A DNA stretch of 37,284 nt. Origin: a virus. Its lineage: Duplodnaviria; Caudoviricetes. Positions 1 to 35,955 of the stretch are shown here, one piece after another (the first letter of the stretch is position 1; the number at the start of each line of letters is the position of its first letter). The position numbers and the translations under genes were made by a program. The notes beneath the pieces were generated by a model, which saw only the letters and a list, made by a program, of their open reading frames with translations, had not been told where the DNA came from and made no database searches. The DNA lies in IMG/VR virus record IMGVR_UViG_3300010382_000023, positions 1-37,284 of that record; one strand, written 5' to 3'.

Positions 1-711
1 ATGACGCATGACGCTTTATACAGTGAGCTTACAGTTGAATTAGAACAAGAGTATTCCAAACGAATCGCCGAAATAACCATCGTTGAAAACTTTGTAGAAT
101 ATCATAAAGGAACTGCAACTGAAGATGTTGTGGGTGTAATCAGAAAGTCTTTAATTATGGTGCTATATTCACATTTCGAAGGCTATTGTAAGCAGGTATT
201 ACAATATTATGTTATATATATAAATAAAGAGAAGATTCTGTCTTCAGATGCAAAATCAGGCCTAATAGCTGCAAACATGCACAAAGAATTTCGTAAATTA
301 CTTGATAGCAATCATAAACCCGTAAACATGCATGATTTACTCAAAGAAGACGGTGTTCTACAACAATATGGGCGAAGGCGAGAGTTCCTTGGTCACTGGG
401 GCGAATTTATGACAAAGGAAATTAATATCGGTGAAGATTTTATTGATACAGAATCGAACTTAAAATCTCATGTTCTTAAAAAAATAATGTTTCAATTAGA
501 GTTAAACTATTCAATAGTTGATACATACCAAAACGAAATAAATAAACTTGTAAATATACGTAATAGTTTTGCCCATGGAGATCGTGTCGGATACCCTACG
601 AAAAAGGAGTATGACAATTATAGAGACGCCGTAGTTCACCTTATGGAAAAACTAAAAGATGAAATTGAAACATCTTTTTTAGATAGAGCATATATAAAAG
701 TATCTTCCTAG
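1..711 (+). CDS. HEPN-domain protein (MAE_28990/MAE_18760-like or RiboL-PSP-like), putative RNase/defence moron
   Basis: LYSHFEGY helix motif and RNSFAH (Rx4H) motif near the C-terminus; visibly AT-rich; convergent with the lysis cassette. Confidence 0.75.
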   Translation: MTHDALYSELTVELEQEYSKRIAEITIVENFVEYHKGTATEDVVGVIRKSLIMVLYSHFEGYCKQVLQYYVIYINKEKILSSDAKSGLIAANMHKEFRKLLDSNHKPVNMHDLLKEDGVLQQYGRRREFLGHWGEFMTKEINIGEDFIDTESNLKSHVLKKIMFQLELNYSIVDTYQNEINKLVNIRNSFAHGDRVGYPTKKEYDNYRDAVVHLMEKLKDEIETSFLDRAYIKVSS

Positions 712-6503: not shown

Positions 6504-9500
6504 CTACTTCTTCATGCCAAGTATTCTTAGCATTGTGTCGTAGTACGCTTCTGCGGCTTTTCTTTGTTCGACTGATAAGCCATCGTCGGCGCGCTTTTTT
6601 TCGATGTACTCGTTAGCCAGCGCCCGGGCCTGTTGCGGCACGGTTTTGCCTTCGGGTATCTTTACCCCGATTACCGCCGCCATGATGTTCATTTCGCTCG
6701 GCGAGAGATCGCTCTTTCCGTCCTTGTCGCGATCAAGGCCCACGATGGAGGTGAGCTTGCCCGCGTTGGTGTTTCCGTCCAGGTCTTTCAGCAGGTAGTA
6801 GGCTTCCATCTTGTCGATACCCTGCGCAACGGCGGCTTGATACTTCTCCGTTTGGGACTGCGTCAGTGTATCTTTGGAATAGCTGTAGCCCTTGGGTAAG
6901 ATGGAGGACGGGCCATTGAGCAGGATTTTGAAGTAGTTATGCCAGTCTGGCTCTGCCGGGTATCTCAACCGCCCATCGTCCGCATAGTAATCGCCCTTAA
7001 CAAAAACCGTGTCTACTCCCCACGCCGTTTTTTTGATTTGCCCGCCGCCCCAAGGGAAGAAGCCAAGAGCAATGTACGCCGCTTCGGTCATAAGGCTGCC
7101 CACATCTTTCTTGCTATCTGCGAGCGATGTAACGAATCTCCACAGATCACTTACATTACTCGCCAAGGGGGTGCGCCCCCCGCTCCACACGGAACCAAAA
7201 GGCAGTTGCTCCACCGTATCGGAAATGGCTGCGCCTGCGTCATCTGCTGTGGCTATATTTATCGCAATGTCGATGGGACTGAACGCCTGATCGCCACCAC
7301 CGATAAGCCAACGCTTAAACTTGTTCCATCCAAACATCAGCACCATGTAAAGCAGCACCCGCCAGATCGTTTCTGGCGGCATTCCCTTGATTTTTTTCTC
7401 CGGCGCGTCCCAGTCTATGCCCTCTGTTGTCCCTCCGTTTCTTTGCTCTATGGCGTAGATTTGTTCACCGATTGCCTGCCGCGAGAGATCGCGGAAGTGG
7501 AACATCTGGTTCCAGCCCTCAAGCATGAACTGCATCCACGGTCTTGCGGCTCTTGCTGTGAATATCAACGGAACCGTGCCTTTGTTTCTGTCGGCAAACA
7601 TTTTCACGAGGAAGTCATCGGTTTCGCGTATGGCATCTTCCGGGGTGTAGCCTTTTTCCATAAGCTCGCCATACTTCGCGCGCGCTACGGTTATTGTACC
7701 GATGCGGTCGGTTACCTCAAACCACCAGCCAAGGAAATTCCCAAGTCCACGTTTGACCCTATCTACCTTGGATATGATGATCTTCTCATTCTGTTCCAGC
7801 CTGCGTGCGAGAGTCGGGATTTTTTCCGTGAATCCGTCTTCGTTCTTGAAAATGCCATTCTGGAACGTGTTCAGTATAGCGATTGGGATTTGCTTTGCTT
7901 GCAACCCCGGTACAGATGAGAACAGCGATATCAGGTTGGACAATCCAACCGATATGTTTCCCGCAACGGCGGCCCCGCCGACCGTGCCCGTCAACTTATC
8001 AGATATCGTGTAGATTTCTCTGCCTGCCGCGGCCTCAAGCGCGCGGTCAAGATCGGGCTTTTTATTGGCAAGCTGGTTCGTATAGTCGTGCAGCCACGTT
8101 ATAAGCGCGCTGTTTTTGCTGCCTCCGCTGTTTTCTCGCAGATACTTTTCAAGCTGCCTATGCCGTTGAATAACGGGCGTCATGTAGATAAGGGAGGACG
8201 CGCCTTGCAAGTAGCGGTTGAATCCCCGTATCGCGTCGTATTCCGTCAAATCCCCCATCCGTTCAAGCATGTGGGAAACAAACTGTCTTCCGGGGCTGAA
8301 GGACGCCGTAAGCCCCGCGATAGAGGATGGAAGTTTTTGTGCCTCGCCCTTGATTATGTCGATGAAGTCCTGCGGCCCATAAGCCTCTCGCCCGATGTGG
8401 TGGAAGTACTCCTGCCGCATGGGGATGGGCGAATAGCCGTTCTCCGTAAGCGAGCCGTTTTGCATCGGCAACACGCGGGCGTAGAAGTCCACAAGCGCAT
8501 CTTTAAGCTTCTTGACATCCTCCATATTCGGCTTTTGACCGTCCTCGATCACCGCGAGAGCGTTCATACCGGCGTAAACCGTCGTAACGTTCCCACGTTG
8601 CTGGATGATTAGGTTGCCCTGCGTAGAGGTAGGCTTTGCGTTGTTGAGCGCGCTAAGGTACGCCTCGCGGATACCCTTGTAGTATTCCTCGTTGGGCTGT
8701 CCGCGCTTTCTCTTTGAGGCCTCCTTTGCCGCCGCGATCTCCGCCTTGCGCTGCTGCGCGCGGTACTTCGAATCGAACATGAGCAGTTCGTTGCCCGAGG
8801 AGAGCGCCACAAGCTGCCCACGTTTGTCGAACAAGAACACGCCGTTTTCGGTTTTAACGACCATGTTCTTTTTGCCATAAATGGCGTTTGCCGCGTCTTT
8901 TTCGGCTATGATGCCCTCGCCAAGCATTTGTGCTAACGTGGAGGTGCTTTGCTTCCCGTCAAACGCTTCTAGCACCTTTGCTGTCTCGGCGTTCTCCCAC
9001 AGCGTGGCGGCTGCACCTTGGTCTTTCAAATACCCCAAATAGGTGTCCCGCAAGCGGTTACCCTCGAGGTAGTTTCCTGCGCGACCCTCCGATGTTTTCG
9101 TATCCCGCCAATTCGCAACATCTTCCCATATCCGGGCGGGGAACGAAAACGTAAGGGCGAGCTGCTTGCCGACCTCTCCGATAACGGATGGCTCGTTCCA
9201 CAGCTTCACATTTTCCAACAGCTTATCGAGTTCGACAGAGTTTATCATGCCGCCTTGGTTGAAGCCGTTGGCGAGGTACATACCCCTCAAAGCCAGCGCG
9301 ACTTCGTGATCTGCTCCGCCTTGTTGGTAATACTCCGCCACGGAAATACGCTCGCGGTATAACCGCTGCACCTCGCGCAGTTGCTTGATCTCGCGACCAA
9401 GCGTTTTCATGCGCTGTTCTTGTTTTAGCGTTTGAACTTGCTTCTCAAGCTCCGCACGGTCGCTTCCCGTGAGGCGTTGCTTCTCTCCGTCAATGGTGGT

Positions 9501-12500
9501 ATCTACGTAATAGGTCCCATCTTTTTTCTGATGAATGGCCGGCATGGGATAACTAACTTCGATGCCCTCGCCAATATCAAAGGAAATACGCGAGTGTTCA
9601 ATATTTTCGTTGCTATTTTCGGTGGAATCGAGTACGCTAGTTATAAGGACGTCATCAGCACTCGCCTCGGGTAATTGTTTCCCGTTGGAAAGAAGCTGCC
9701 TGATGTCCTCATTATTTTTGTTGCTTTCTTCAGCGGCTTCGAATATACTTTTATTAGGATTTAGGTGGGCATGTAAAGTCCCGCCGTTTCCGATAAGGAT
9801 TTCGTTAGAATCCACCTCGGGTAATTGTTTCCCGCTGACCAGGATCTGATGATCGTCCTTATTTTTTTTGTTGCTATTTCCAGTGGAATTGAGTATATTA
9901 GTTATGAAGATGTCGTCAGTGCTCGCCTCGGGAAATGACTTCCCGTTGGAAAGAAGCTGCATGATGTCTTCATTTTTTCTGGTATACCGCGTGCCTCCAG
10001 CCTTTGCAAGAAGGCCTTTAAAATAATCGGCCTGAAAAACAGAGACAACTCTGGTTTCCATCTCAATAGCACCCTGAACATTAAGATGGAATGGAATAAT
10101 TATTGGTTTACCGCTTTGATCTTTCCATTCAGTTACTACTATATAACTCTTATATCCCCCCTTGTTTGGCTGTGGATTATCCATAATTGCAACCGGATCG
10201 TCTATCTGGAATGGTAATTGCTTTAACACCGACATTCCAAGGTTATGCTTCCCATTAAAATAGCTTAATGGATAGGCAATTTTCCTTGCCGTTGATTGTT
10301 CCATGTAAAGTGTACGGTCAGGAAAACCATTTTCAATCAGAATTCCCGGGGTCTTGCCGAGAATAACCATCTGGCCCGATGGTAACGAGCCATCGAAAAC
10401 ACCATCTATTTCTTGATGATACCGTCTAAGATTATCCTCGTCGGTAATAGGTAGAGTTTTTGCTTCTTCTCGACTTACTTCGCGCCCACCCACCCGCGAA
10501 TACTCGACCTTATTGTCCGTCCACCGGGGTGTTTGTAGATTTTTGGCATACGGCCCCATATTGACAGATTTGAAAAGGTCGAATATACTAATACTATCTA
10601 CACCACCCGCACCACCTGACGCGTTCTGCGTCGGCGAGTTCAGCAAAGCTTGCTTTGTTGACAGCGGGTGGTGATCTATTTTGCTCACATCCACGTCATC
10701 AACAGCATAGCCATGCATCCGGTCAACCGTATCGTTGAGAGACAGTTTCAGCGTGGTCTTTACTGCGTAATACCCTCCATCGTATTTAATGAGGTTTACT
10801 AGGTATGTAAATTCGCTGTTCTCCGACTTTTCCTTCCCCGATACAGCCCTTCCGAGATACTTTGATGCTTCAAGAATTTGTTTGTATTGCGGAAGAATAC
10901 GCAGAAGTAACGTTTGGTGCTGCGCATCGCCATGCCTTTGATAGATGACTTTGCGCATGCCTTGCTTATAGTCCAAGATTACCGGCATGTTAAGCTCCGC
11001 AATCGTCACGGTTTCATTTCGCGTCCCGCTTTTTAAAAAGGCGTCCGCTTCTCTCTGCATGGTCGGTATGCCTTGGGCGGTATATATCGTAGTTGGATTA
11101 ATTACCGTAGCATCTACCCGCTCGCCCTTCCAACGCTCCGCAGGAAATAAAACAGCCGCCGTCCGCGAATACTCCGGATCGCCCGTTGCTTTCAGGTTGT
11201 CCGTTATAGCCGTTGTGTCCTTTACGGCTTCTGTATAGAACGCACCGCGGTTTACGAGGGCTTGCCAGAAGGCACGCTGGAAGTCGTTTTTTATATCCGC
11301 GTTTACTCCGAACGGGCGCACAGCTCCACCTTTATTCGTGCTCCACCAAGCACCATACATATCCGCGATGAGTTCGCGTGACAAGTCAACATGCCCTTCG
11401 TCTGGCGAAGAGATGCGCTCCGAACGATAGGCGGCATATTCGCTCACGATATCCTCGCCCCGATTGCTGAACGCCTCAATGACCTTTTGTCCCGCGGCAT
11501 TGATCTCGGGGATGTTGTGGGCGGTTTCATGAGCAGCCACATGTATGGGGTCGGCGCTATTGAGATTCACAAAGATTCTTTGCCCGTCCGTGAACCCCTC
11601 GCTGAACACATCGTCCGATTCGTACAAAAAAACATCGAGGGCGTTGATTCCCGCGATGTCTGTTATATCTGCCAATGCCTCTGTCAGTTCGGGCGGCGCT
11701 TCGTCCACAAGCCTTGCCGTTGCCTGTTTGCCGTCCGGAGTGCGCTTGTCAGCGATGTATCGTTTCAAGACCCGATCGGCCTGTTTGCGGCTTACTTCTT
11801 GTGCTTCGTTTCGGCTATCGCTTCTTCGTACTCCCTCTTGGCCTTTTTGGCGTCCCTGTTCAATTGAACCAGTTCGTGCAGTTTCTTCTCGTAAGGCCCC
11901 TGCGGTGCGTTGCGATCCACTGCCAACACCGGCCGTATCGGACGGATATCCTGCTTCTCTTCCATGGCTTAACTCCCCCTCTCGGCCTTCGTTTCGGCTA
12001 CTGCCTCCTCGTACTCTTTCTTGGCTCGTTTGGCGTCTTTGTTGATCTGCGCCCACTCTCGCATCGCTTTCGCGTAGGGGCAAGTCGAGGGCTCCCCGGT
12101 CGGTCTGCCCACCGGGCGCGCGTAGTGCAGTTCCTGCTTCTCTTCCATGGCTTAACTCCCCCTCTCGGCCTTCGTTTCCGCTATCGCTTCGTTGTATTCT
12201 TTCAGTGCTTGCTTCGCGTCCCGGTTGAGTTGCATCAGGTCGCGCAAGCCTTGCGCTTCCACCGACAGAGGCCGTTTCTCGCCCGTGCGTGGAATCTTTC
12301 CCAATATCGGTTGTATCAGCCGGATTCCCTGTTTTTCTTCCACCGTTTATCCCTCCTGCTTCTTGGTTAGTTCCTCGTACTCCGAGAGCACTTGCCGCGC
12401 TTCTTTGTCCAGTTGAAACAGATCTCTCAGTCCCTGTTCTTCCGGCGACAGAGGCCGCTTCTCGCCCGTCCGGGGAATTTTCGCCAATACTGAGCCGATT

Positions 12501-15308
12501 TCCCTGATTTTCCGTCCTTCCAACGTTTATTCCTCCTGCGGTCGTTCGGATGGCCTGTGCACTTCGCTGTACGCCGCTCTGCGCGGCTTCGCTTTGCTTG
12601 ATTATACTTTGTTCCTGCTGGATTTTCAAGGTCTGCGCGGCCTCTACAACGCCGTTTCGCAGACCTTTGAGCCTGTTTTCCGTCTTGATCTTCGCTGCGC
12701 CGTTCTTGGCGTTGGCAATCTCAACCTTTTGCAGGTATTTTGCTTTTGCCGCATTGAACGCCGCCTCGTCGCCCTTTTGCATGGCCGTGGTCATGGCGTC
12801 ATAGGAAGTCTGCAGGTCGGCCTTAAGTTCCATCTTGGCAATGTTGAAATCGGCATTTACTTCCGCAATCTGCGCTGTGGCCGTCTGGATGGTGTTTTGG
12901 AACTTCATCGCCGCCTGCGGATCGCTGCGCACCGCCGCCGCGTATGCCTCTGTAACGGCTTGTACGGCGGCTTCGTTCATACCCATATTCTGCGCCGCCG
13001 CGACAACTTCCGCGACTTGGGCGGTCTGCTGCTGGGTCAGCGGGGCCGCTGCGGGCGTTTCCGTGTTCACGAGCGCTTCCATGGGTGCACCCTGCGCAAT
13101 CGCCTGCGCGATCGCTTCCTGCGCCGCTTCCGATATACCGGGTGCAGCAGTGGGAATGGCGGCATTTTGCGGTGCCACTTGTTCGGTGGGCACGCCCGTC
13201 AAACCGCCCACGTTTGGCGCGGTGTTGGGCTGCACAGGAGAAGCCGCCCCCATAACGGCGGGCATTCCGGATGTATCTCCGGAATAAGCCCCGGTTCCCC
13301 CCGCTAACCCGCTTTTTATCATCCTGATCTGCTCATCAACGGCATCTAGTCCTTGGAGGACTTCGTTTATAAACGATTGCTGACCCGCATAATAGTGCTG
13401 CGAGATCGCGCCACGGATGGTTTTATTGTATTCGAGAATCTTTTCAAGAGCAGCAGCCCTTTGAGCGGGGGTCATGTTTTCATTCAACGTTGCCTGATAA
13501 TCGCGGCGCATTTGTTCGACCGCGTTTTCAAGATAAGCTTTATTCTGCTTTGTGACCTGCGCAGTATTCACCGCCGAGGTAATCGCCGAAAACAGGAACG
13601 AAACCGCGATATCCTGTGCAATTTGCTCTTTCGACGGGCGGCTTCCTTCGGGATACAGCCAATAAGTTGATGTGATTCTCCCAGCGGCAAAAGCGGTTCC
13701 GGAAAGCGTCTGCCGCAAGGCTTCCGCGAACGGCGTCTGTAAGCCATACTTGACAAGGATGGATTTTCCGAGATCGCCTACAACGATTCCCGCGATGCTC
13801 CCCGCTGCGCCGCCAACGGTGTTTATGCCCGCCTGTTTTAGCACGTTGCTTACCTGATCCCACGCGCTGTATTCAATAGGCTCGTACATATAGCCCTGTT
13901 CAAGGTAATAATCCTTCTTCGCCTGTTCGAGCTGGTTCCACTCATCGCGCGTTACGGTATTAGTCATTCCCTGATACGCTCCCTGCGCGCCGAATGTAAG
14001 GCTGTTAATAATCACTTTCTGTAGGGCCGGGGCCACTTTAGAAAGCCACGGAATCGCTTCTTGCAGCGCCGCTATACCGCCCCCTATGGCATCGCCCATC
14101 ATAAGCAAAGAAGTAAGATCACCTGTTACATTTCCGGCAGCGTATGCTCCTTCGTTCGCGGTCTTTATCTCGGCGAATTGCTCCTGAATGCTTTTGCTCG
14201 CTTCTGTCCTTGTTCCCTTTGCGGCAAGGTCGAAACCCTTATCCATGAGCCAATCGATTCCAAAGGCCTCCGCAAAACCGGCCCCAAAGCCCGCGCCCCA
14301 ATTCGATTTATTTTGAAGATTAATATAAACATTCTGGATTTCAGCCGGCATATTCGTATAAAAAACATCGCCCTGATCCACCACGGAATACTTACCCTGC
14401 ATTGCCTTAAGAGCGGCTTTTGCTTCGCGCTTTTCGTCCCCAGTAAGCGTATCCTTCTGCGAAAGTTCAACATACCTTGTCCAGTTATCGCCGAAGTTTC
14501 TGTGTCCTTCACTACTCTTGGCGATAAACGCGGCCTGTGCCGCTGCTTCCCGCTGTTTTTTCGCTTCCAACTCTGCAAGCTGCGCCTGATATTGCTCGTA
14601 TTCCTTCTGCTGTCCCCTCGCGATGCGCTGATGCTCCCAGCCGGAACGGGCGGCAGCATAAGCCTGACGCTCGGCGGCATACTTTTTCAGAAGGTCATCA
14701 TATGTTACGCCTTTTGTGTAGTCCTCGGTATACTTTCCTGCCACGGCTTCCTGTGTGGCTTTCAGCTTTTCCTCATCGAGCGCGCCCGAGTACGCGTCAA
14801 CTCCCTTCCATGCGGAAAGAACCGCGTCGGTGTACTCCTTCTGCTTCGCTTCCGTGGCAAGCGCGCCCTGCGCGTCGTAATAGTATTTTGAAAACTGCGA
14901 GTACGAAGGGAGTCCTTGCGAAAGAAGATAAAGATCGATATCGCTATCGGTATATTTGGATGCATACGAAACAGGCATATACCCGGCGGCCTTACGCGCC
15001 GTATCGATCTGATCGAGTACATTATAAGCGTCAGCCCATCCGGACTGATAATTCGACTTCACGCGATCCAAAACGTTCTGGTCAAGACCGGACAAATCGA
15101 TGGCAGGGGTTTCAGAAGCAAAGGTGAACTTGTCACCGTCACGTCTTAATTTTCCTGTTCCGCTCTTGACATAATTATAGAAATTCTTATATAGAGCACT
15201 TATTTCGGCGGAGCTATACGCTGCTGTGGCTGATGGAGTTTTTCCGTTTTTCCGCCAATCATCAAAACCTTGAAAAGCTTCAATAAAATCTCTTTTTGCG
15301 TCCGCCAT
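6504..15308 (-). CDS. Large polyvalent protein, probable virion ejection protein: Gly/Ala-rich hydrophobic helices, HExxH metallopeptidase, LPD3-like and MuF-C/PBECR-like domains, helical C-terminus
   Basis: 2934 aa at the position of podovirus internal proteins; HETAH at 11517-11531; YLVNLIKYDGGYYAVKTTLK...MHGYAV (LPD3-like, ~10690-11100); LGKTPGIL...HNLGMSVLKQLPFQIDDPVAIM (MuF-C-like, ~9985-10450). Confidence 0.8.
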   Translation of the reverse strand: MADAKRDFIEAFQGFDDWRKNGKTPSATAAYSSAEISALYKNFYNYVKSGTGKLRRDGDKFTFASETPAIDLSGLDQNVLDRVKSNYQSGWADAYNVLDQIDTARKAAGYMPVSYASKYTDSDIDLYLLSQGLPSYSQFSKYYYDAQGALATEAKQKEYTDAVLSAWKGVDAYSGALDEEKLKATQEAVAGKYTEDYTKGVTYDDLLKKYAAERQAYAAARSGWEHQRIARGQQKEYEQYQAQLAELEAKKQREAAAQAAFIAKSSEGHRNFGDNWTRYVELSQKDTLTGDEKREAKAALKAMQGKYSVVDQGDVFYTNMPAEIQNVYINLQNKSNWGAGFGAGFAEAFGIDWLMDKGFDLAAKGTRTEASKSIQEQFAEIKTANEGAYAAGNVTGDLTSLLMMGDAIGGGIAALQEAIPWLSKVAPALQKVIINSLTFGAQGAYQGMTNTVTRDEWNQLEQAKKDYYLEQGYMYEPIEYSAWDQVSNVLKQAGINTVGGAAGSIAGIVVGDLGKSILVKYGLQTPFAEALRQTLSGTAFAAGRITSTYWLYPEGSRPSKEQIAQDIAVSFLFSAITSAVNTAQVTKQNKAYLENAVEQMRRDYQATLNENMTPAQRAAALEKILEYNKTIRGAISQHYYAGQQSFINEVLQGLDAVDEQIRMIKSGLAGGTGAYSGDTSGMPAVMGAASPVQPNTAPNVGGLTGVPTEQVAPQNAAIPTAAPGISEAAQEAIAQAIAQGAPMEALVNTETPAAAPLTQQQTAQVAEVVAAAQNMGMNEAAVQAVTEAYAAAVRSDPQAAMKFQNTIQTATAQIAEVNADFNIAKMELKADLQTSYDAMTTAMQKGDEAAFNAAKAKYLQKVEIANAKNGAAKIKTENRLKGLRNGVVEAAQTLKIQQEQSIIKQSEAAQSGVQRSAQAIRTTAGGINVGRTENQGNRLSIGENSPDGREAASVAGRTGTERSVSTGQRSAASALGVRGTNQEAGGINGGRKTGNPADTTDIGKDSTHGRETASVGGSARLARPDATQPGREASTERIQRSDSGNEGREGELSHGREAGTALRAPGGQTDRGALDLPLRESDARVGADQQRRQTSQERVRGGSSRNEGREGELSHGREAGYPSDTAGVGSGSQRTAGALREETARTGSIEQGRQKGQEGVRRSDSRNEAQEVSRKQADRVLKRYIADKRTPDGKQATARLVDEAPPELTEALADITDIAGINALDVFLYESDDVFSEGFTDGQRIFVNLNSADPIHVAAHETAHNIPEINAAGQKVIEAFSNRGEDIVSEYAAYRSERISSPDEGHVDLSRELIADMYGAWWSTNKGGAVRPFGVNADIKNDFQRAFWQALVNRGAFYTEAVKDTTAITDNLKATGDPEYSRTAAVLFPAERWKGERVDATVINPTTIYTAQGIPTMQREADAFLKSGTRNETVTIAELNMPVILDYKQGMRKVIYQRHGDAQHQTLLLRILPQYKQILEASKYLGRAVSGKEKSENSEFTYLVNLIKYDGGYYAVKTTLKLSLNDTVDRMHGYAVDDVDVSKIDHHPLSTKQALLNSPTQNASGGAGGVDSISIFDLFKSVNMGPYAKNLQTPRWTDNKVEYSRVGGREVSREEAKTLPITDEDNLRRYHQEIDGVFDGSLPSGQMVILGKTPGILIENGFPDRTLYMEQSTARKIAYPLSYFNGKHNLGMSVLKQLPFQIDDPVAIMDNPQPNKGGYKSYIVVTEWKDQSGKPIIIPFHLNVQGAIEMETRVVSVFQADYFKGLLAKAGGTRYTRKNEDIMQLLSNGKSFPEASTDDIFITNILNSTGNSNKKNKDDHQILVSGKQLPEVDSNEILIGNGGTLHAHLNPNKSIFEAAEESNKNNEDIRQLLSNGKQLPEASADDVLITSVLDSTENSNENIEHSRISFDIGEGIEVSYPMPAIHQKKDGTYYVDTTIDGEKQRLTGSDRAELEKQVQTLKQEQRMKTLGREIKQLREVQRLYRERISVAEYYQQGGADHEVALALRGMYLANGFNQGGMINSVELDKLLENVKLWNEPSVIGEVGKQLALTFSFPARIWEDVANWRDTKTSEGRAGNYLEGNRLRDTYLGYLKDQGAAATLWENAETAKVLEAFDGKQSTSTLAQMLGEGIIAEKDAANAIYGKKNMVVKTENGVFLFDKRGQLVALSSGNELLMFDSKYRAQQRKAEIAAAKEASKRKRGQPNEEYYKGIREAYLSALNNAKPTSTQGNLIIQQRGNVTTVYAGMNALAVIEDGQKPNMEDVKKLKDALVDFYARVLPMQNGSLTENGYSPIPMRQEYFHHIGREAYGPQDFIDIIKGEAQKLPSSIAGLTASFSPGRQFVSHMLERMGDLTEYDAIRGFNRYLQGASSLIYMTPVIQRHRQLEKYLRENSGGSKNSALITWLHDYTNQLANKKPDLDRALEAAAGREIYTISDKLTGTVGGAAVAGNISVGLSNLISLFSSVPGLQAKQIPIAILNTFQNGIFKNEDGFTEKIPTLARRLEQNEKIIISKVDRVKRGLGNFLGWWFEVTDRIGTITVARAKYGELMEKGYTPEDAIRETDDFLVKMFADRNKGTVPLIFTARAARPWMQFMLEGWNQMFHFRDLSRQAIGEQIYAIEQRNGGTTEGIDWDAPEKKIKGMPPETIWRVLLYMVLMFGWNKFKRWLIGGGDQAFSPIDIAINIATADDAGAAISDTVEQLPFGSVWSGGRTPLASNVSDLWRFVTSLADSKKDVGSLMTEAAYIALGFFPWGGGQIKKTAWGVDTVFVKGDYYADDGRLRYPAEPDWHNYFKILLNGPSSILPKGYSYSKDTLTQSQTEKYQAAVAQGIDKMEAYYLLKDLDGNTNAGKLTSIVGLDRDKDGKSDLSPSEMNIMAAVIGVKIPEGKTVPQQARALANEYIEKKRADDGLSVEQRKAAEAYYDTMLRILGMKK
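9610..9719 (+). ncRNA. Embedded antisense sRNA unit 1 (promoter, long hairpin, T-run)
   Basis: TTGCTA-N17-TACGCT; stem AGGACGTCA/TGATGTCCT; apical CGGGTAATTGTTTCCCG. Confidence 0.6.
9721..9869 (+). ncRNA. Embedded antisense sRNA unit 2
   Basis: TTGCTT-N17-TATACT; extra 5' hairpin; stem ATAAGGAT/GTCCTTAT plus T8; same apical CGGGTAATTGTTTCCCG. Confidence 0.65.
9871..9978 (+). ncRNA. Embedded antisense sRNA unit 3 (adjacent to the MuF-C-like domain)
   Basis: TTGCTA-N17-TATATT; 13-bp stem ATGAAGATGTCGT/ATGATGTCTTCAT plus T-run; apical CGGGAAATGACTTCCCG. Confidence 0.65.
10561..10682 (+). ncRNA. Embedded antisense three-way-junction sRNA adjacent to the LPD3-like domain
   Basis: TTGACA-N17-TATACT; perfect 10-bp closing stem CACCACCCGC/GCGGGTGGTG enclosing two hairpins, one with a G(CUUG)C tetraloop. 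Confidence 0.7.
11792..11965 (-). CDS. Overprinted small protein D (57 aa, +1 frame inside the polyvalent gene)
   Basis: MEEKQDIRPIRPVLAVDRNAPQGPYEKKLHELVQLNRDAKKAKREYEEAIAETKHKK; ATG after GAGGGGGAG; paralog of A-C. Confidence 0.75.
   Translation of the reverse strand: MEEKQDIRPIRPVLAVDRNAPQGPYEKKLHELVQLNRDAKKAKREYEEAIAETKHKK
11969..12148 (-). CDS. Overprinted small protein C (59 aa)
   Basis: MEEKQELHYARPVGRPTGEPSTCPYAKAMREWAQINKDAKRAKKEYEEAVAETKAERGS; ATG after GAGGGGGAG. Confidence 0.75.
   Translation of the reverse strand: MEEKQELHYARPVGRPTGEPSTCPYAKAMREWAQINKDAKRAKKEYEEAVAETKAERGS
12152..12343 (-). CDS. Overprinted small protein B (63 aa)
   Basis: ORF-track entry MEEKQGIRLIQPILGKIPRTGEKRPLSVEAQGLRDLMQLNRDAKQALKEYNEAIAETKAERGS; GTG after AGGAGG. 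Confidence 0.75.
   Translation of the reverse strand: MEEKQGIRLIQPILGKIPRTGEKRPLSVEAQGLRDLMQLNRDAKQALKEYNEAIAETKAERGS
12347..12523 (-). CDS. Overprinted small protein A (58 aa)
   Basis: MEGRKIREIGSVLAKIPRTGEKRPLSPEEQGLRDLFQLDKEARQVLSEYEELTKKQEG; TTG after AGGAGG (12532-12537). Confidence 0.75.
   Translation of the reverse strand: MEGRKIREIGSVLAKIPRTGEKRPLSPEEQGLRDLFQLDKEARQVLSEYEELTKKQEG
12601..12629 (-). promoter_or_regulatory. Internal sigmaA promoter upstream of the overprinted gene array
   Basis: TTGAAA(12629-12624)-N17-TATAAT(12606-12601), about 80 nt before ORF A. Confidence 0.75.
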
Positions 15309-15326: not shown

Positions 15327-16103
15327 TTACTTAACCCCCGGAACCGACAAGAGATTTTTACCACTTGCGCCGCCAATATACGGAACGTTCTTTTTATTGA
15401 GGGGCGGCAGATCCGGCTTGACCTTAGGCTTTAGGTCTTGGATACTAGCCAACAATGCCGCGAGTTGCGCCGCCCAGTCTATACCACCACCGCCAGAACT
15501 TGCCTTGTTCTGCGCGTAGAAACTGCCCGCCAGCGAAAGCGCCTGAGAAAGCGCGTTATTCTGCATGGCCGCGTTGTATTGCTGGGCTGTGAGTTGGTTT
15601 TGCTTCTCCTGTGCGAGCGCCGCCGCGATCTGCTGCGCGAGCGTTGCGCTATAATTGGATTCCATCGTCGCCACGTCCGAAGCTTCGTAGTTCTGCTGGC
15701 GGTTCTTCACGTCGGTTACCCATGTGCTTGCACCCATGCCCCGCGCCGCCGCGTCCGCGTCGATGTTGGCCTTGTTCGTGACCGTTTGCTTCCCGCGGTT
15801 GACGATTGCCTGATCCACCGCCGGGCGAAGGTACGAAGCGATGTTATTCTTAATCGTCGCCTCGTCTGTCGGGGCATAACTGATCGACGGCATATACGCG
15901 CCGATCATAGAGTAAAGATCATCAAACATAGAAGAAAACTCGGACGGCACCGAGGAACCGTTGGCCTTATCATATGCCGCCTGCGTCTGAGGCCCCCACA
16001 TGCCGTCTGTCTTAACGCCAAGCTTCTGTTGCAGAGCCTTGACCTGTTCCGCGTTGCTAATGTCGGACGGTGGTGTATAGCCCGGAAGATAGTAACTTGC
16101 CAT
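15327..16103 (-). CDS. Putative internal virion/ejection protein with N-terminal PG-binding domain
   Basis: VKALQQKLGVKTDGMWGPQTQAA; Q/A/N-rich helical body; directly precedes the giant gene. Confidence 0.65.
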   Translation of the reverse strand: MASYYLPGYTPPSDISNAEQVKALQQKLGVKTDGMWGPQTQAAYDKANGSSVPSEFSSMFDDLYSMIGAYMPSISYAPTDEATIKNNIASYLRPAVDQAIVNRGKQTVTNKANIDADAAARGMGASTWVTDVKNRQQNYEASDVATMESNYSATLAQQIAAALAQEKQNQLTAQQYNAAMQNNALSQALSLAGSFYAQNKASSGGGGIDWAAQLAALLASIQDLKPKVKPDLPPLNKKNVPYIGGASGKNLLSVPGVK

Positions 16104-16130
16104 TGCTGTATCTCCTTAAAATGGTATAAT
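16103..16130 (+). promoter_or_regulatory. Promoter of the solitary CRISPR repeat RNA
   Basis: TTGCTG-N16-TATAAT with extended TGn; -10 at 16125-16130, 13 nt before the repeat. Confidence 0.7.
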
Positions 16131-16143
16131 TTATACAGTAACC

Positions 16144-16175
16144 GTCGCGTGCTACGTGCGCGCGTGGATTGAAAT
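16144..16175 (+). CRISPR. Solitary type I-C CRISPR repeat unit (candidate RNA anti-CRISPR or mini-array)
   Basis: GTCGCGTGCTACGTGCGCGCGTGGATTGAAAT: 32 nt, 7-bp stem at positions 3-9/15-21, canonical 11-nt TGGATTGAAAT handle; no cas genes in the window. Confidence 0.85.
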
Positions 16176-16222
16176 ACCTTATCGCTGTTTGTCACGTCAC
16201 TCGGCGACATGCGCACGAATGG

Positions 16223-16256
16223 AAAACCGGCAGCTAAAAACAGTTTCCGGTTTTTT
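16223..16256 (+). terminator. Terminator closing the repeat-containing RNA (possibly bidirectional)
   Basis: AAAACCGG...CCGGTTTTTT. Confidence 0.7.
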
Positions 16257-16458
16257 ATTTTGCTTCTAGAGTAGTTATGCGGGAAAGAAGATCGTTGTGA
16301 GCCGATAACAGTTCGGCATAGGCGTTAAATAGCGTGTTGAAATTCTGATTCAATGCGTTTTCGTTTTGGGAAACGCTTGTATCGTATTCCTCTGCATCTT
16401 CGTCGCGCTTTGACTTAGGTAGATATACGGGAAGTTGTGTTTGCAATTCGTTCGCCAT
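16255..16458 (-). CDS. Small coiled-coil tail-region protein
   Basis: 67 aa, 1 nt after the stop of the upstream tail gene. Confidence 0.6.
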   Translation of the reverse strand: MANELQTQLPVYLPKSKRDEDAEEYDTSVSQNENALNQNFNTLFNAYAELLSAHNDLLSRITTLEAK

Positions 16459-33381: not shown

Positions 33382-34539
33382 ATGGCGAAGAAGCAAAAAG
33401 ACGGGCGGTACCGCTCTAAAATCTCGGTCGGAACTGATGTAAACGGCGAAGCTATCTACAAGTATGCCAGTGGCCGCACTAAAAAAGAACTCGAAGCGAA
33501 TGCAGAGGAATTAAAGAAGCGGTATATCGGCGGTGTAGAGGTGCAGCGCGATGTTACCGTCGAAACATATATTACTGAATGGTATGAAGCATTTAAGGAA
33601 GCAGATTTATCCCCCTCAACTCGTTTGAATTATATAGCTGCTATGAATCAGCACATTTTCCCCATTATCGGCGACCGCCGCATGAGCGCTGTGACCTCTA
33701 CCGATTTACACAAGCTCATGGGAACGATGTCAGGCATGGGAAAGACGAGCATTGGCAACGTTAAGTCAATAATTAAAAACGCGTTTCGTGAGGCGTCATC
33801 TTCGGGGATAATCGATCGTGATCCAGCGGCGTCACTTAAGAAGGCGGCCGCGGAAACCAAGAGCCGCCGGGAACTGACCGATAAAGAAGTAAGCGCCGCT
33901 CTCTCGGTAGCTGAGAGCCACCCTGCCGGGCTTATGCTTGCCCTGCTATACTACACCGGTATGAGGCGTGGCGAGATGCTGGCGCTTACGTGGACTGACG
34001 TAGACCTAAAAAAAGGCGTCATTCATGTGTGCAGGGATATAGATTTCGTGACCAATGACGTGGGAGATGTAAAATCACAGTGCTCTATTCGTGACATTCC
34101 GATCCCGATTCCGTTAAAGCGGATCCTCCGCGCGCGGGCGGGCATCGGGTATATCATTAAAGGCCCGGACACTGGCCGCTTCATGCCGCAGGCAACATAT
34201 ATTCGTACTTGGAAATCGCTCATGGCTGCCATGTACCAGGTCGACCCAACAATTGAGCATACGGACCTCAACGCAAACGTGAAGCCAAGAAAAACAAAGA
34301 AAGCCGCGAAAACGAAAAGTACCATAAAGTGTACACCGCTGATCGGGTCGGTACTCACCGCGCATTACTTCAGGCATAATTACGCGACCCTGTTATACGA
34401 CGCCGGCGTGGACGTTCTAACCGCCCAAAAATACCTTGGTCACGCTGACCCGGTCACTACGCTACGGATATACACGCACCTGAAGAACCTGCGCGAACAA
34501 GGCAGCAAACAGAAGGTTATCGAGATGTTCGGGAAGTGA
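33382..34539 (+). CDS. int: Tyrosine integrase
   Basis: YTGMRRGEMLAL, HYFRHNYAT, LGHADPVTTLRIYTH; N-terminal arm-binding region. Confidence 0.97.
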   Translation: MAKKQKDGRYRSKISVGTDVNGEAIYKYASGRTKKELEANAEELKKRYIGGVEVQRDVTVETYITEWYEAFKEADLSPSTRLNYIAAMNQHIFPIIGDRRMSAVTSTDLHKLMGTMSGMGKTSIGNVKSIIKNAFREASSSGIIDRDPAASLKKAAAETKSRRELTDKEVSAALSVAESHPAGLMLALLYYTGMRRGEMLALTWTDVDLKKGVIHVCRDIDFVTNDVGDVKSQCSIRDIPIPIPLKRILRARAGIGYIIKGPDTGRFMPQATYIRTWKSLMAAMYQVDPTIEHTDLNANVKPRKTKKAAKTKSTIKCTPLIGSVLTAHYFRHNYATLLYDAGVDVLTAQKYLGHADPVTTLRIYTHLKNLREQGSKQKVIEMFGK

Positions 34540-34562
34540 CACTTCGGTAAAATTCGGGGTGT

Positions 34563-34677: not shown

Positions 34678-34754
34678 TGGTAGCGGCGACTGGATTCGAA
34701 CCGGTGACACTTCGGGTATGAACCGAATGCTCTGGCCAACTGAGCTACGCCGCC
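34678..34754 (-). tRNA. tRNA with CAT anticodon, elongator tRNA-Met type; probable integration target
   Basis: GGCGGCGTAGCTCAGTTGG...TT-CAT-AC...GGTTCGAATCC...CCA, 77 nt. Confidence 0.93.
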
Positions 34755-34792
34755 ATATATGATGCGCACATCATAAGGTGTGCGCATCAAAT

Positions 34793-34868
<76 letters not shown>

Positions 34869-34929: not shown

Positions 34930-35763
34930 TTAGGGATTTATCATATAACAATCGGGCACCGGCGTCGACTTGGGCAGAAGCCTTTCTCGCAGCGTTTCGC
35001 TTTTTGGCAATTCGTCCGTGATGACGACGGTCGTGCCGGGGCACAGATACAGGTAAACCCACTGCGCGTCGTCCGCAAGCAAGCGGATGCAGCCGTGGGA
35101 CGCGGGCGCGCCGAGCTTCCAGAATTCCTCCTCCATCAGGTAGCGGTCGTCCCGCTGGGAATAGGGGATGGAATGGAAATAGATCCTGCCTCTGATCTGC
35201 GACCAGTACTGGGCGTAGCAATCGAAGCTTGTGAAGTACGCAAAACGCTTTTTATCCTCGCCCATCGTGAACGTGCCGCGAGGGCTGCGGTCCGTTTCCT
35301 CGATACCGGAGGAGCAGATCATCTCGCGTACAAGCACGTTGTAATTGCCGTACGCGTCCCTTTCATAGATCATAACGACCTGATTCGTCAGATCGACAAC
35401 CGCGATGAATTTTGCCGGATCGTCATTGAGCTTCTCCTCCTCCGGATACCGTCCACCCTCATGCGCGCGAAGGCTCTTTGGCGCCAGCGGATAATCCGCG
35501 CTTTGATATGCCGTAGGCTCCGGGGTCGGGGTCGGCTCCGGCGTGGGTTCCGGCGTCGGCGAGGGGGAAGGCGTCGGCTCCTCGGTCGGCGGGGGCGTTG
35601 GCGCAACCTCCGGCGTCGGCGCGAGGGTGACCTCAACGAGCGCGGTCGGTCCGGCCGAAGGCGCGCCCGGCGTGCCCGCGTTCTCCATGCAGGCTGCGAA
35701 CAGGGCAAGTGAAATTACGGAAATAACGGCAAACAGCGTCAGTCTCGCGCGGCAATCTTTCAT
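34930..35763 (-). CDS. Host L,D-transpeptidase (YkuD domain), probable lipoprotein with Pro/Thr linker
   Basis: LFAAC lipobox-like, PTPE repeats, VDLTNQ, IYFHS, ASHGCIRL. Confidence 0.88.
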   Translation of the reverse strand: MKDCRARLTLFAVISVISLALFAACMENAGTPGAPSAGPTALVEVTLAPTPEVAPTPPPTEEPTPSPSPTPEPTPEPTPTPEPTAYQSADYPLAPKSLRAHEGGRYPEEEKLNDDPAKFIAVVDLTNQVVMIYERDAYGNYNVLVREMICSSGIEETDRSPRGTFTMGEDKKRFAYFTSFDCYAQYWSQIRGRIYFHSIPYSQRDDRYLMEEEFWKLGAPASHGCIRLLADDAQWVYLYLCPGTTVVITDELPKSETLRERLLPKSTPVPDCYMINP

Positions 35764-35955
35764 CTGTGGCTCCCTAAGCGTCGGTTCCCGATGATTGTAC
35801 CATATCCCCCGCACCCGCAACAACCCGGACGGGCCGTTTGGCCATATATTTTCGCCGCCTGCGGATGCTCGCCGCCTGCACCTTTCTTCCGGCCCCTTCA
35901 TAGCTTATGTATTAGGGCGCGGTTCGTCGCCCAATAAAGGCAGAGGTATGGCAGT

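Follow-up and report, generated by a model that had tools for sequence, protein, structure and literature searches.

The DNA analysed here (the window) comprises all 37,284 nucleotides of the virus record IMGVR_UViG_3300010382_000023, and a Pfam scan of its 29 larger open reading frames (ORFs) identified an integrase, terminase subunits, a P22-like portal, a capsid protein and an NlpC/P60 lysin. With its integrase, terminase, portal and tRNA site, the window is by gene content a tRNA-integrated prophage, and beyond the integrase two tRNA-Met genes and host-type genes follow (Table 1). A 12-base sequence at the integrase end has a second copy within the first tRNA-Met gene and is possibly att-related. 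An attL repeat was looked for and none was found, and therefore the HEPN gene at the left end of the window may lie outside the prophage; it is a possible defence moron, and its homologues amount to one weak match among 240 host-family genomes. The locus of interest is the junction between a 258-aa phage gene, which probably encodes a virion protein, and a conserved 67-aa phage gene. The sequence-only reading had placed a solitary CRISPR repeat here, antisense between tail genes. The antisense position between genes is correct, and virion genes is the better name for the neighbours, as the product of a 571-aa gene matches the PHROGs category "virion structural / internal virion protein".

Table 1. 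Features of the prophage window around the solitary repeat, and loci of host-family genomes with comparable RNAs.
Feature	Position	Strand	Remarks
HEPN gene (RiboL-PSP / MAE_28990-like)	1–711		Low G+C; convergent with the lysis region and directly beside it
2934-aa protein with MuF-C and LPD3 domains	6504–15308		Polyvalent-protein-like; internal repeats of 183, 150 and 111 nt
258-aa phage gene	15327–16103	−	Peptidoglycan-binding domain in several relatives
Promoter-like site	16103–16130	+	Extended −10 TGnTATAAT at 16122–16130; −35-like TTGCTG at 16103–16108, 3/6 match
Solitary type I-C repeat	16144–16175	+	32 nt, layout 2+7+5+7+11; 7-bp stem, 5-nt loop, 11-nt handle
Repeat handle TGGATTGAAAT	16165–16175	+	Intact, 11 nt
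Guide-like stretch after the handle	16176–16200	+	15–25 nt by parse
Possible decayed second repeat	16191–16225	+	Weak bulged hairpin at 16201–16218, off canonical register
Intrinsic-terminator-like hairpin and T run	16220–16257	+	z −4.25; 0/200 shuffles as stable; missed by simple scan
Conserved 67-aa phage gene	16255–16458	−	In relatives its stop codon abuts the next gene
Two tRNA-Met genes, with the 12-base stretch at the integrase end	34536–34548 and 34678–34868		After the integrase; host-type genes beyond
CreR-like loci of host-family genomes: L145 (G324), L144 (G288), L095, L289, L294, L098, L285, L287, L290, L297	Upstream of cas5c		AT-rich guide

The central element is indeed a 32-nt repeat with the stem geometry and handle of type I-C, as had been read from the sequence. 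It folds into the expected 7-bp stem, and the chance expectation of its 19 fixed I-C bases in the window is 3e-7; taken by itself, the stem energy does not stand out (z −1.3). A repeat search of the whole window returned it as the only I-C-type repeat, and no cas family was recognised among the 29 larger ORFs (Pfam) or among 29 ORFs (PHROGs) out of the 172 listed, which agrees with the earlier statement that neither an array nor cas genes are present. The same Pfam and PHROGs scans recognised no acr gene beside the cassette, unlike at RacrIC1, and an Rfam scan of the window gave no relevant family, its one weak match (E 8.4) lying elsewhere. The promoter that had been proposed before the repeat is present in its extended −10 box, which ends 13 bases upstream of the repeat, whereas the −35-like element is poor, and for this reason the promoter was not listed by a consensus scan. 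The putative start site would be near 16137. The promoter-like site shares bases with the ribosome-binding site of the 258-aa gene on the minus strand, whose coordinates end at 16103. The terminator proposed downstream of the repeat was confirmed as a highly stable hairpin, and it is nearly symmetric, so that it may work on the minus strand too. Because of this near-symmetry, and because the promoter extends into the ribosome-binding site of the late gene downstream, the cassette may also damp late-operon read-through into the genes of the 258-aa and 2934-aa proteins. The DNA was found in two sequencing runs only, both of one sediment sample. RNA contigs from one run on the same sample as the DNA gave low, patchy cover over 20 kb of the prophage, with contigs of up to 79 kb, and left positions 15990–16182 uncovered; this cover is consistent with DNA carry-over.

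The flanks were compared with related loci. These had been collected with an alignment query built from 41 homologues of the 258-aa protein, out of 108, and comprised 32 loci from genomes, 33 from metagenomes and 16 from viruses. An I-C repeat was found in none of the 82 related phage loci. In the 51 loci in which the 67-aa gene was detected (44 distinct gene sequences), the gap after its stop codon is −4 to 27 nt in 50 cases and 82 nt in one, and the closest relative, L003, has a single base at this junction. Here, the gap is 151 nt, and since at most 27 nt are found in 50 of the 51 loci, the cassette is an insert. It is a singleton among the viral contigs, phages and plasmids searched: neither the exact repeat nor the handle with the guide-like stretch occurs in the viral contigs, and BLAST with the cassette gave only eight short phage matches (E 0.1–5) and none to plasmids.

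A scan of viral sequences for I-C repeats with a −10 box shortly upstream gave 17 loci, most of them arrays. In another prophage, a cassette of matching design (L176:1500–1620) is antisense to the terminase and portal genes between which it lies, and it consists of a −10 box, an I-C repeat, about 20 nt and a hairpin. Different viruses have solitary I-C repeats that are identical in sequence (L160/L168:1500–1600 and L381:701–732), and in L160 and L168 the repeat sits at the same type of junction as in L176; in L168 it has its own −10 box and lies between the terminase and a probable portal gene. Yet another solitary I-C repeat, with a −10 box and a hairpin downstream, lies just before an integrase-like gene (L161:1500–1650).

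As to the decayed second repeat with a 15-nt pseudo-spacer that had been suspected downstream, the similarity depends on the scoring. Under affine scoring, the observed score was reached by 14 of 2000 shuffles and by 26 of 2480 window segments (p about 0.01), whereas under SRUFinder-type scoring the segment matches at 18/32 positions, a value that 13% of 739 control segments also reached and that is thus not significant. The canonical stem is broken, and the start is ambiguous, so that the pseudo-spacer would be 15 or 20 nt long, with 25 nt to the internal hairpin. This residual similarity, together with the singleton status of the cassette and the finding that viral mini-arrays are common (Shmakov et al., PMC10120712), would suit a decaying relic that now does little, left from a one-spacer mini-array that was once directed against a competing virus or taken from a host array. 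We consider such a relic improbable, as the first repeat, the extended −10 box and the terminator are all intact, the stem change is compensatory, the second repeat alone is broken, and its similarity is not significant under the SRUFinder-type scoring. Two-repeat ancestry may be shared with the viral mini-arrays described in that study, but the second copy, at 18/32, falls far short of the 90% identity required by SRUFinder, lacks the canonical stem and leaves a spacer of only 15–20 nt. Two near-identical repeats and a full-length spacer define a mini-array, and by its sequence the cassette is not one.

By position, it is instead a solitary repeat unit. The SRUFinder procedure requires 90% identity to a known array repeat, draws on a database of 17,823 repeats and limits partial repeats in the flanks to 70% (PMC10651486); in its "truly solitary" flank test over 100 bp, the cassette is on the solitary side, with 56% against the 70% limit (18/32 downstream, 16/32 upstream). 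The Racrs and solitary repeat units described there, including RacrIC1, share with the cassette the intergenic single repeat on a prophage, the predicted promoter, the lack of cas genes and a subtype that is also found among the kin of the inferred host. RacrIC1, an I-C solitary repeat that alone protects phage against I-C targeting (Camara-Wilpert et al. 2023, PMC10651486), differs in that it is described as lying 11 nt behind acrIC5 on one transcript, while the present repeat stands alone, antisense in a virion operon and with its own terminator.

The host was approached through the YkuD gene at 34930–35901, whose orthologues have 67–78% identity in nine genomes of one family that includes Clostridia and Christensenella genomes; five of them fall in one genus of 16 genomes. 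On this basis, we infer a Christensenella-related clostridium as the host. A lack of type I-C in the host lineage would have spoken against the RNA anti-CRISPR idea, and type I-C is present in the inferred lineage: cas5c scored above its cut-off in 57 of 240 host-family genomes, and cas8c was found in 3 of the 10 close host-kin genomes tested as well as in 11 of the 32 genomes that carry related prophages.

The comparison with host I-C array repeats was made with such host-family kin. The best identity to the sampled 32-nt array repeats of the family is 26/32, with the first five and the last fourteen bases kept, and this lies below the 90% cut-off of SRUFinder with respect to the sampled host-family repeats only (PMC10651486). 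In the stem, the prophage repeat has G8/C16, whereas C8/G16 is found in all 20 host-family repeat types that were seen at least three times. As the pair is exchanged and pairing kept, the comparison points to selection on the structure of the stem; it is a single compensatory event, and the G8/C16 pair is also found in the repeats of other lineages. An origin of the repeat from another host is therefore possible. We had considered G8/C16 as a hallmark of solitary phage repeats and dropped it, because a full array (L378) has it too. The stem motif was not found in the nine supplements of the Racr paper (PMC10651486).

Type I-C loci of the host family have a further property that bears on the function of the cassette. 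Upstream DNA of at most 3.6 kb was taken from 65 cas5c loci (218 kb in total, some of the loci being truncated or weak matches), and about 10 of the loci have an antisense repeat handle shortly upstream of cas5c, followed by 20–28 bases and a hairpin, as counted by eye after a relaxed filter. These antisense RNAs look like I-C CreR regulators. Four of the CreR-like RNAs match their own locus over 12–18 nt beside a TTC or TTT PAM, in L145 at a site just upstream of a TTGACA box; the self-match in L294 covers 16 nt and has CCC, which is non-canonical, at its side. CreR-like regulators are present at three I-C loci of the likely host genus (G324, G288, G377), and at about 55 of the 65 cas5c loci the scan detected no self-regulator. 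As about 10 of the 65 loci carry such RNAs, the circuit that is exploited by Cracrs exists in the host lineage.

It must hence be asked whether the cassette is itself of the Cracr type. Its processed RNA would then guide a non-cutting Cascade to a TTC-flanked promoter site in the real host, be it of the cas operon or of a guarded toxin or defence gene, and would also compete with crRNAs. Cracrs act by repression and competition and require a seed match (Liu et al., bioRxiv 10.1101/2024.10.29.618823), and the preprint also has I-C Cracrs on record. Common to them and the cassette are the repeat-like unit, a short spacer-like stretch, a terminator and the location on a phage, and to this the CreR-like regulators of the host lineage may be added, with their self-matches beside TTC or TTT. 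Host I-C crlRNAs (CreR/CRISIS; bioRxiv 10.1101/2024.12.27.630466) likewise share the 11-nt handle, a short guide and a 3′ hairpin, and their products of 48–50 nt would fit the internal hairpin here; as described in that preprint, crlRNAs sit inside cas operons beside a TTC/TTA-flanked target promoter, whereas the present repeat lies in a prophage with no nearby target.

The sequence-only reading had offered guidance to a host promoter, especially that of cas, or to a competitor as one possible action, and this part found no support in the target searches. Within the 65 cas5c-upstream regions, the best PAM-flanked run of the guide-like stretch was 9 nt and lay within host repeat-like sequence, and 27 wide I-C loci gave no convincing match. 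Two guide runs of 12 nt, located at the beginning of cas3 or within it, have non-canonical PAMs and were rejected. A host regulator with the same guide start was sought in 240, 301 and 381 overlapping genomes; of the 14, 34 and 16 pattern matches, the 14, 30 and 16 that were inspected proved to be array spacers or unrelated sequence. The Cracr preprint defines the class by 9 or more PAM-proximal bases that match a host CreR/CreA guide or a cas promoter, and the genomes searched, which are host kin only, contain no such match. Moreover, the lowest-energy fold pairs 16182–16187, which are bases 7–12 of the guide, with 16202–16207; guide bases that are predicted to be folded away weakly favor a decoy over a guide. 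A Cracr-type function thus appears unlikely to us, but as a Cracr directed at an unsampled strain it stays real, because the three I-C loci of the likely genus seem to be self-regulated and plain decoys are argued to fail there.

Guidance to a target other than cas was also considered. Such a target could be a competing virus, some host gene or the HEPN cluster of the prophage, the last as an addiction or Acr-sensing switch. What speaks for it is the low-G+C HEPN gene itself, which lies beside the lysis region and whose upstream DNA and promoter fall beyond the left end of the window, and the resemblance of the complement of PAM plus seed to a ribosome-binding site. In the viral contigs, 46 matches to a 16-base guide pattern were found, the best of which (L316) has a TTC PAM, agrees in 17 of the first 18 bases and is at a gene start. 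By our own arithmetic, chance alone would give a number of matches of this order, with about 0.7 matches extending as far as that in L316. All TTC- or TTT-flanked guide matches of 10–12 nt that were inspected in genomes of the genus lie within ORFs, no PAM-flanked match to the guide in the window itself exceeds 7 nt, and the HEPN gene may be no part of the prophage. We therefore regard a guide of this kind as very improbable. A tripwire, in which Cascade would be guided to repress the prophage's own HEPN toxin or defence gene and an Acr-bearing invader or the loss of Cascade would release the toxin in a CreTA-like manner, is hardly to be expected.

The best reading, which we place about midway between doubt and confidence, is that the inserted cassette produces a Racr-type decoy RNA that weakens the I-C immunity of the host. 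Its anatomy, its insertion and the presence of type I-C in the inferred host lineage fit the RNA anti-CRISPR that had been proposed. The promoter would give an RNA of about 120 nt starting near 16137, and since this start would be independent of the late operon, transcription in the lysogen is possible. Cleavage of I-C repeat-like RNAs by Cas5c is known to fall 3′ of the hairpin and to leave the 11-nt handle (bioRxiv 10.1101/2024.12.27.630466), and by analogy with the I-C crlRNAs the predicted cut by host Cas5c lies at the base of the stem, between 16164 and 16165. Trimming at the internal hairpin would give a handle-bearing product of about 45–55 nt, whereas a product that runs to the terminator would have about 92 nt. 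As the repeat occupies the very 5′ end of the RNA, Cascade could be nucleated by this downstream product only. Loading of Cas5c, Cas7 and Cas8c onto it would sequester Cascade subunits in a non-targeting form, and interference would be reduced; as no target was found, sequestration is the most likely action. Following the logic of the Cracr preprint, simple sequestration should work at the approximately 55 of 65 cas5c loci where no self-regulator was seen. Some points weigh against the decoy. The cassette is a singleton among the sequences searched, and no acr gene was recognised beside it. The layout of repeat, about 25 nt, hairpin and terminator matches that of crlRNAs and Cracrs equally, and CreR-like regulators are present at the three I-C loci of the likely genus; it is against systems with such CreR-type self-regulation that plain decoys are argued to fail (bioRxiv 10.1101/2024.10.29.618823).

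The phage trick itself has already been described, as I-C Racrs and Cracrs have been published, and judged from its sequence the cassette would be a new example with a candidate function rather than a new principle or mechanism. If functional, it adds an RNA anti-CRISPR from a lineage of anaerobic sediment Clostridia, and it would indicate that RNAs of this type can be mobile as inserts of about 135 bp that are complete in themselves and sit in a virion operon. The stem has diverged enough that identity-based searches may miss it. Since some I-C loci of the host lineage are regulated and others apparently are not, the cassette also lends itself, as a small system, to distinguishing a decoy from guided repression in type I-C.
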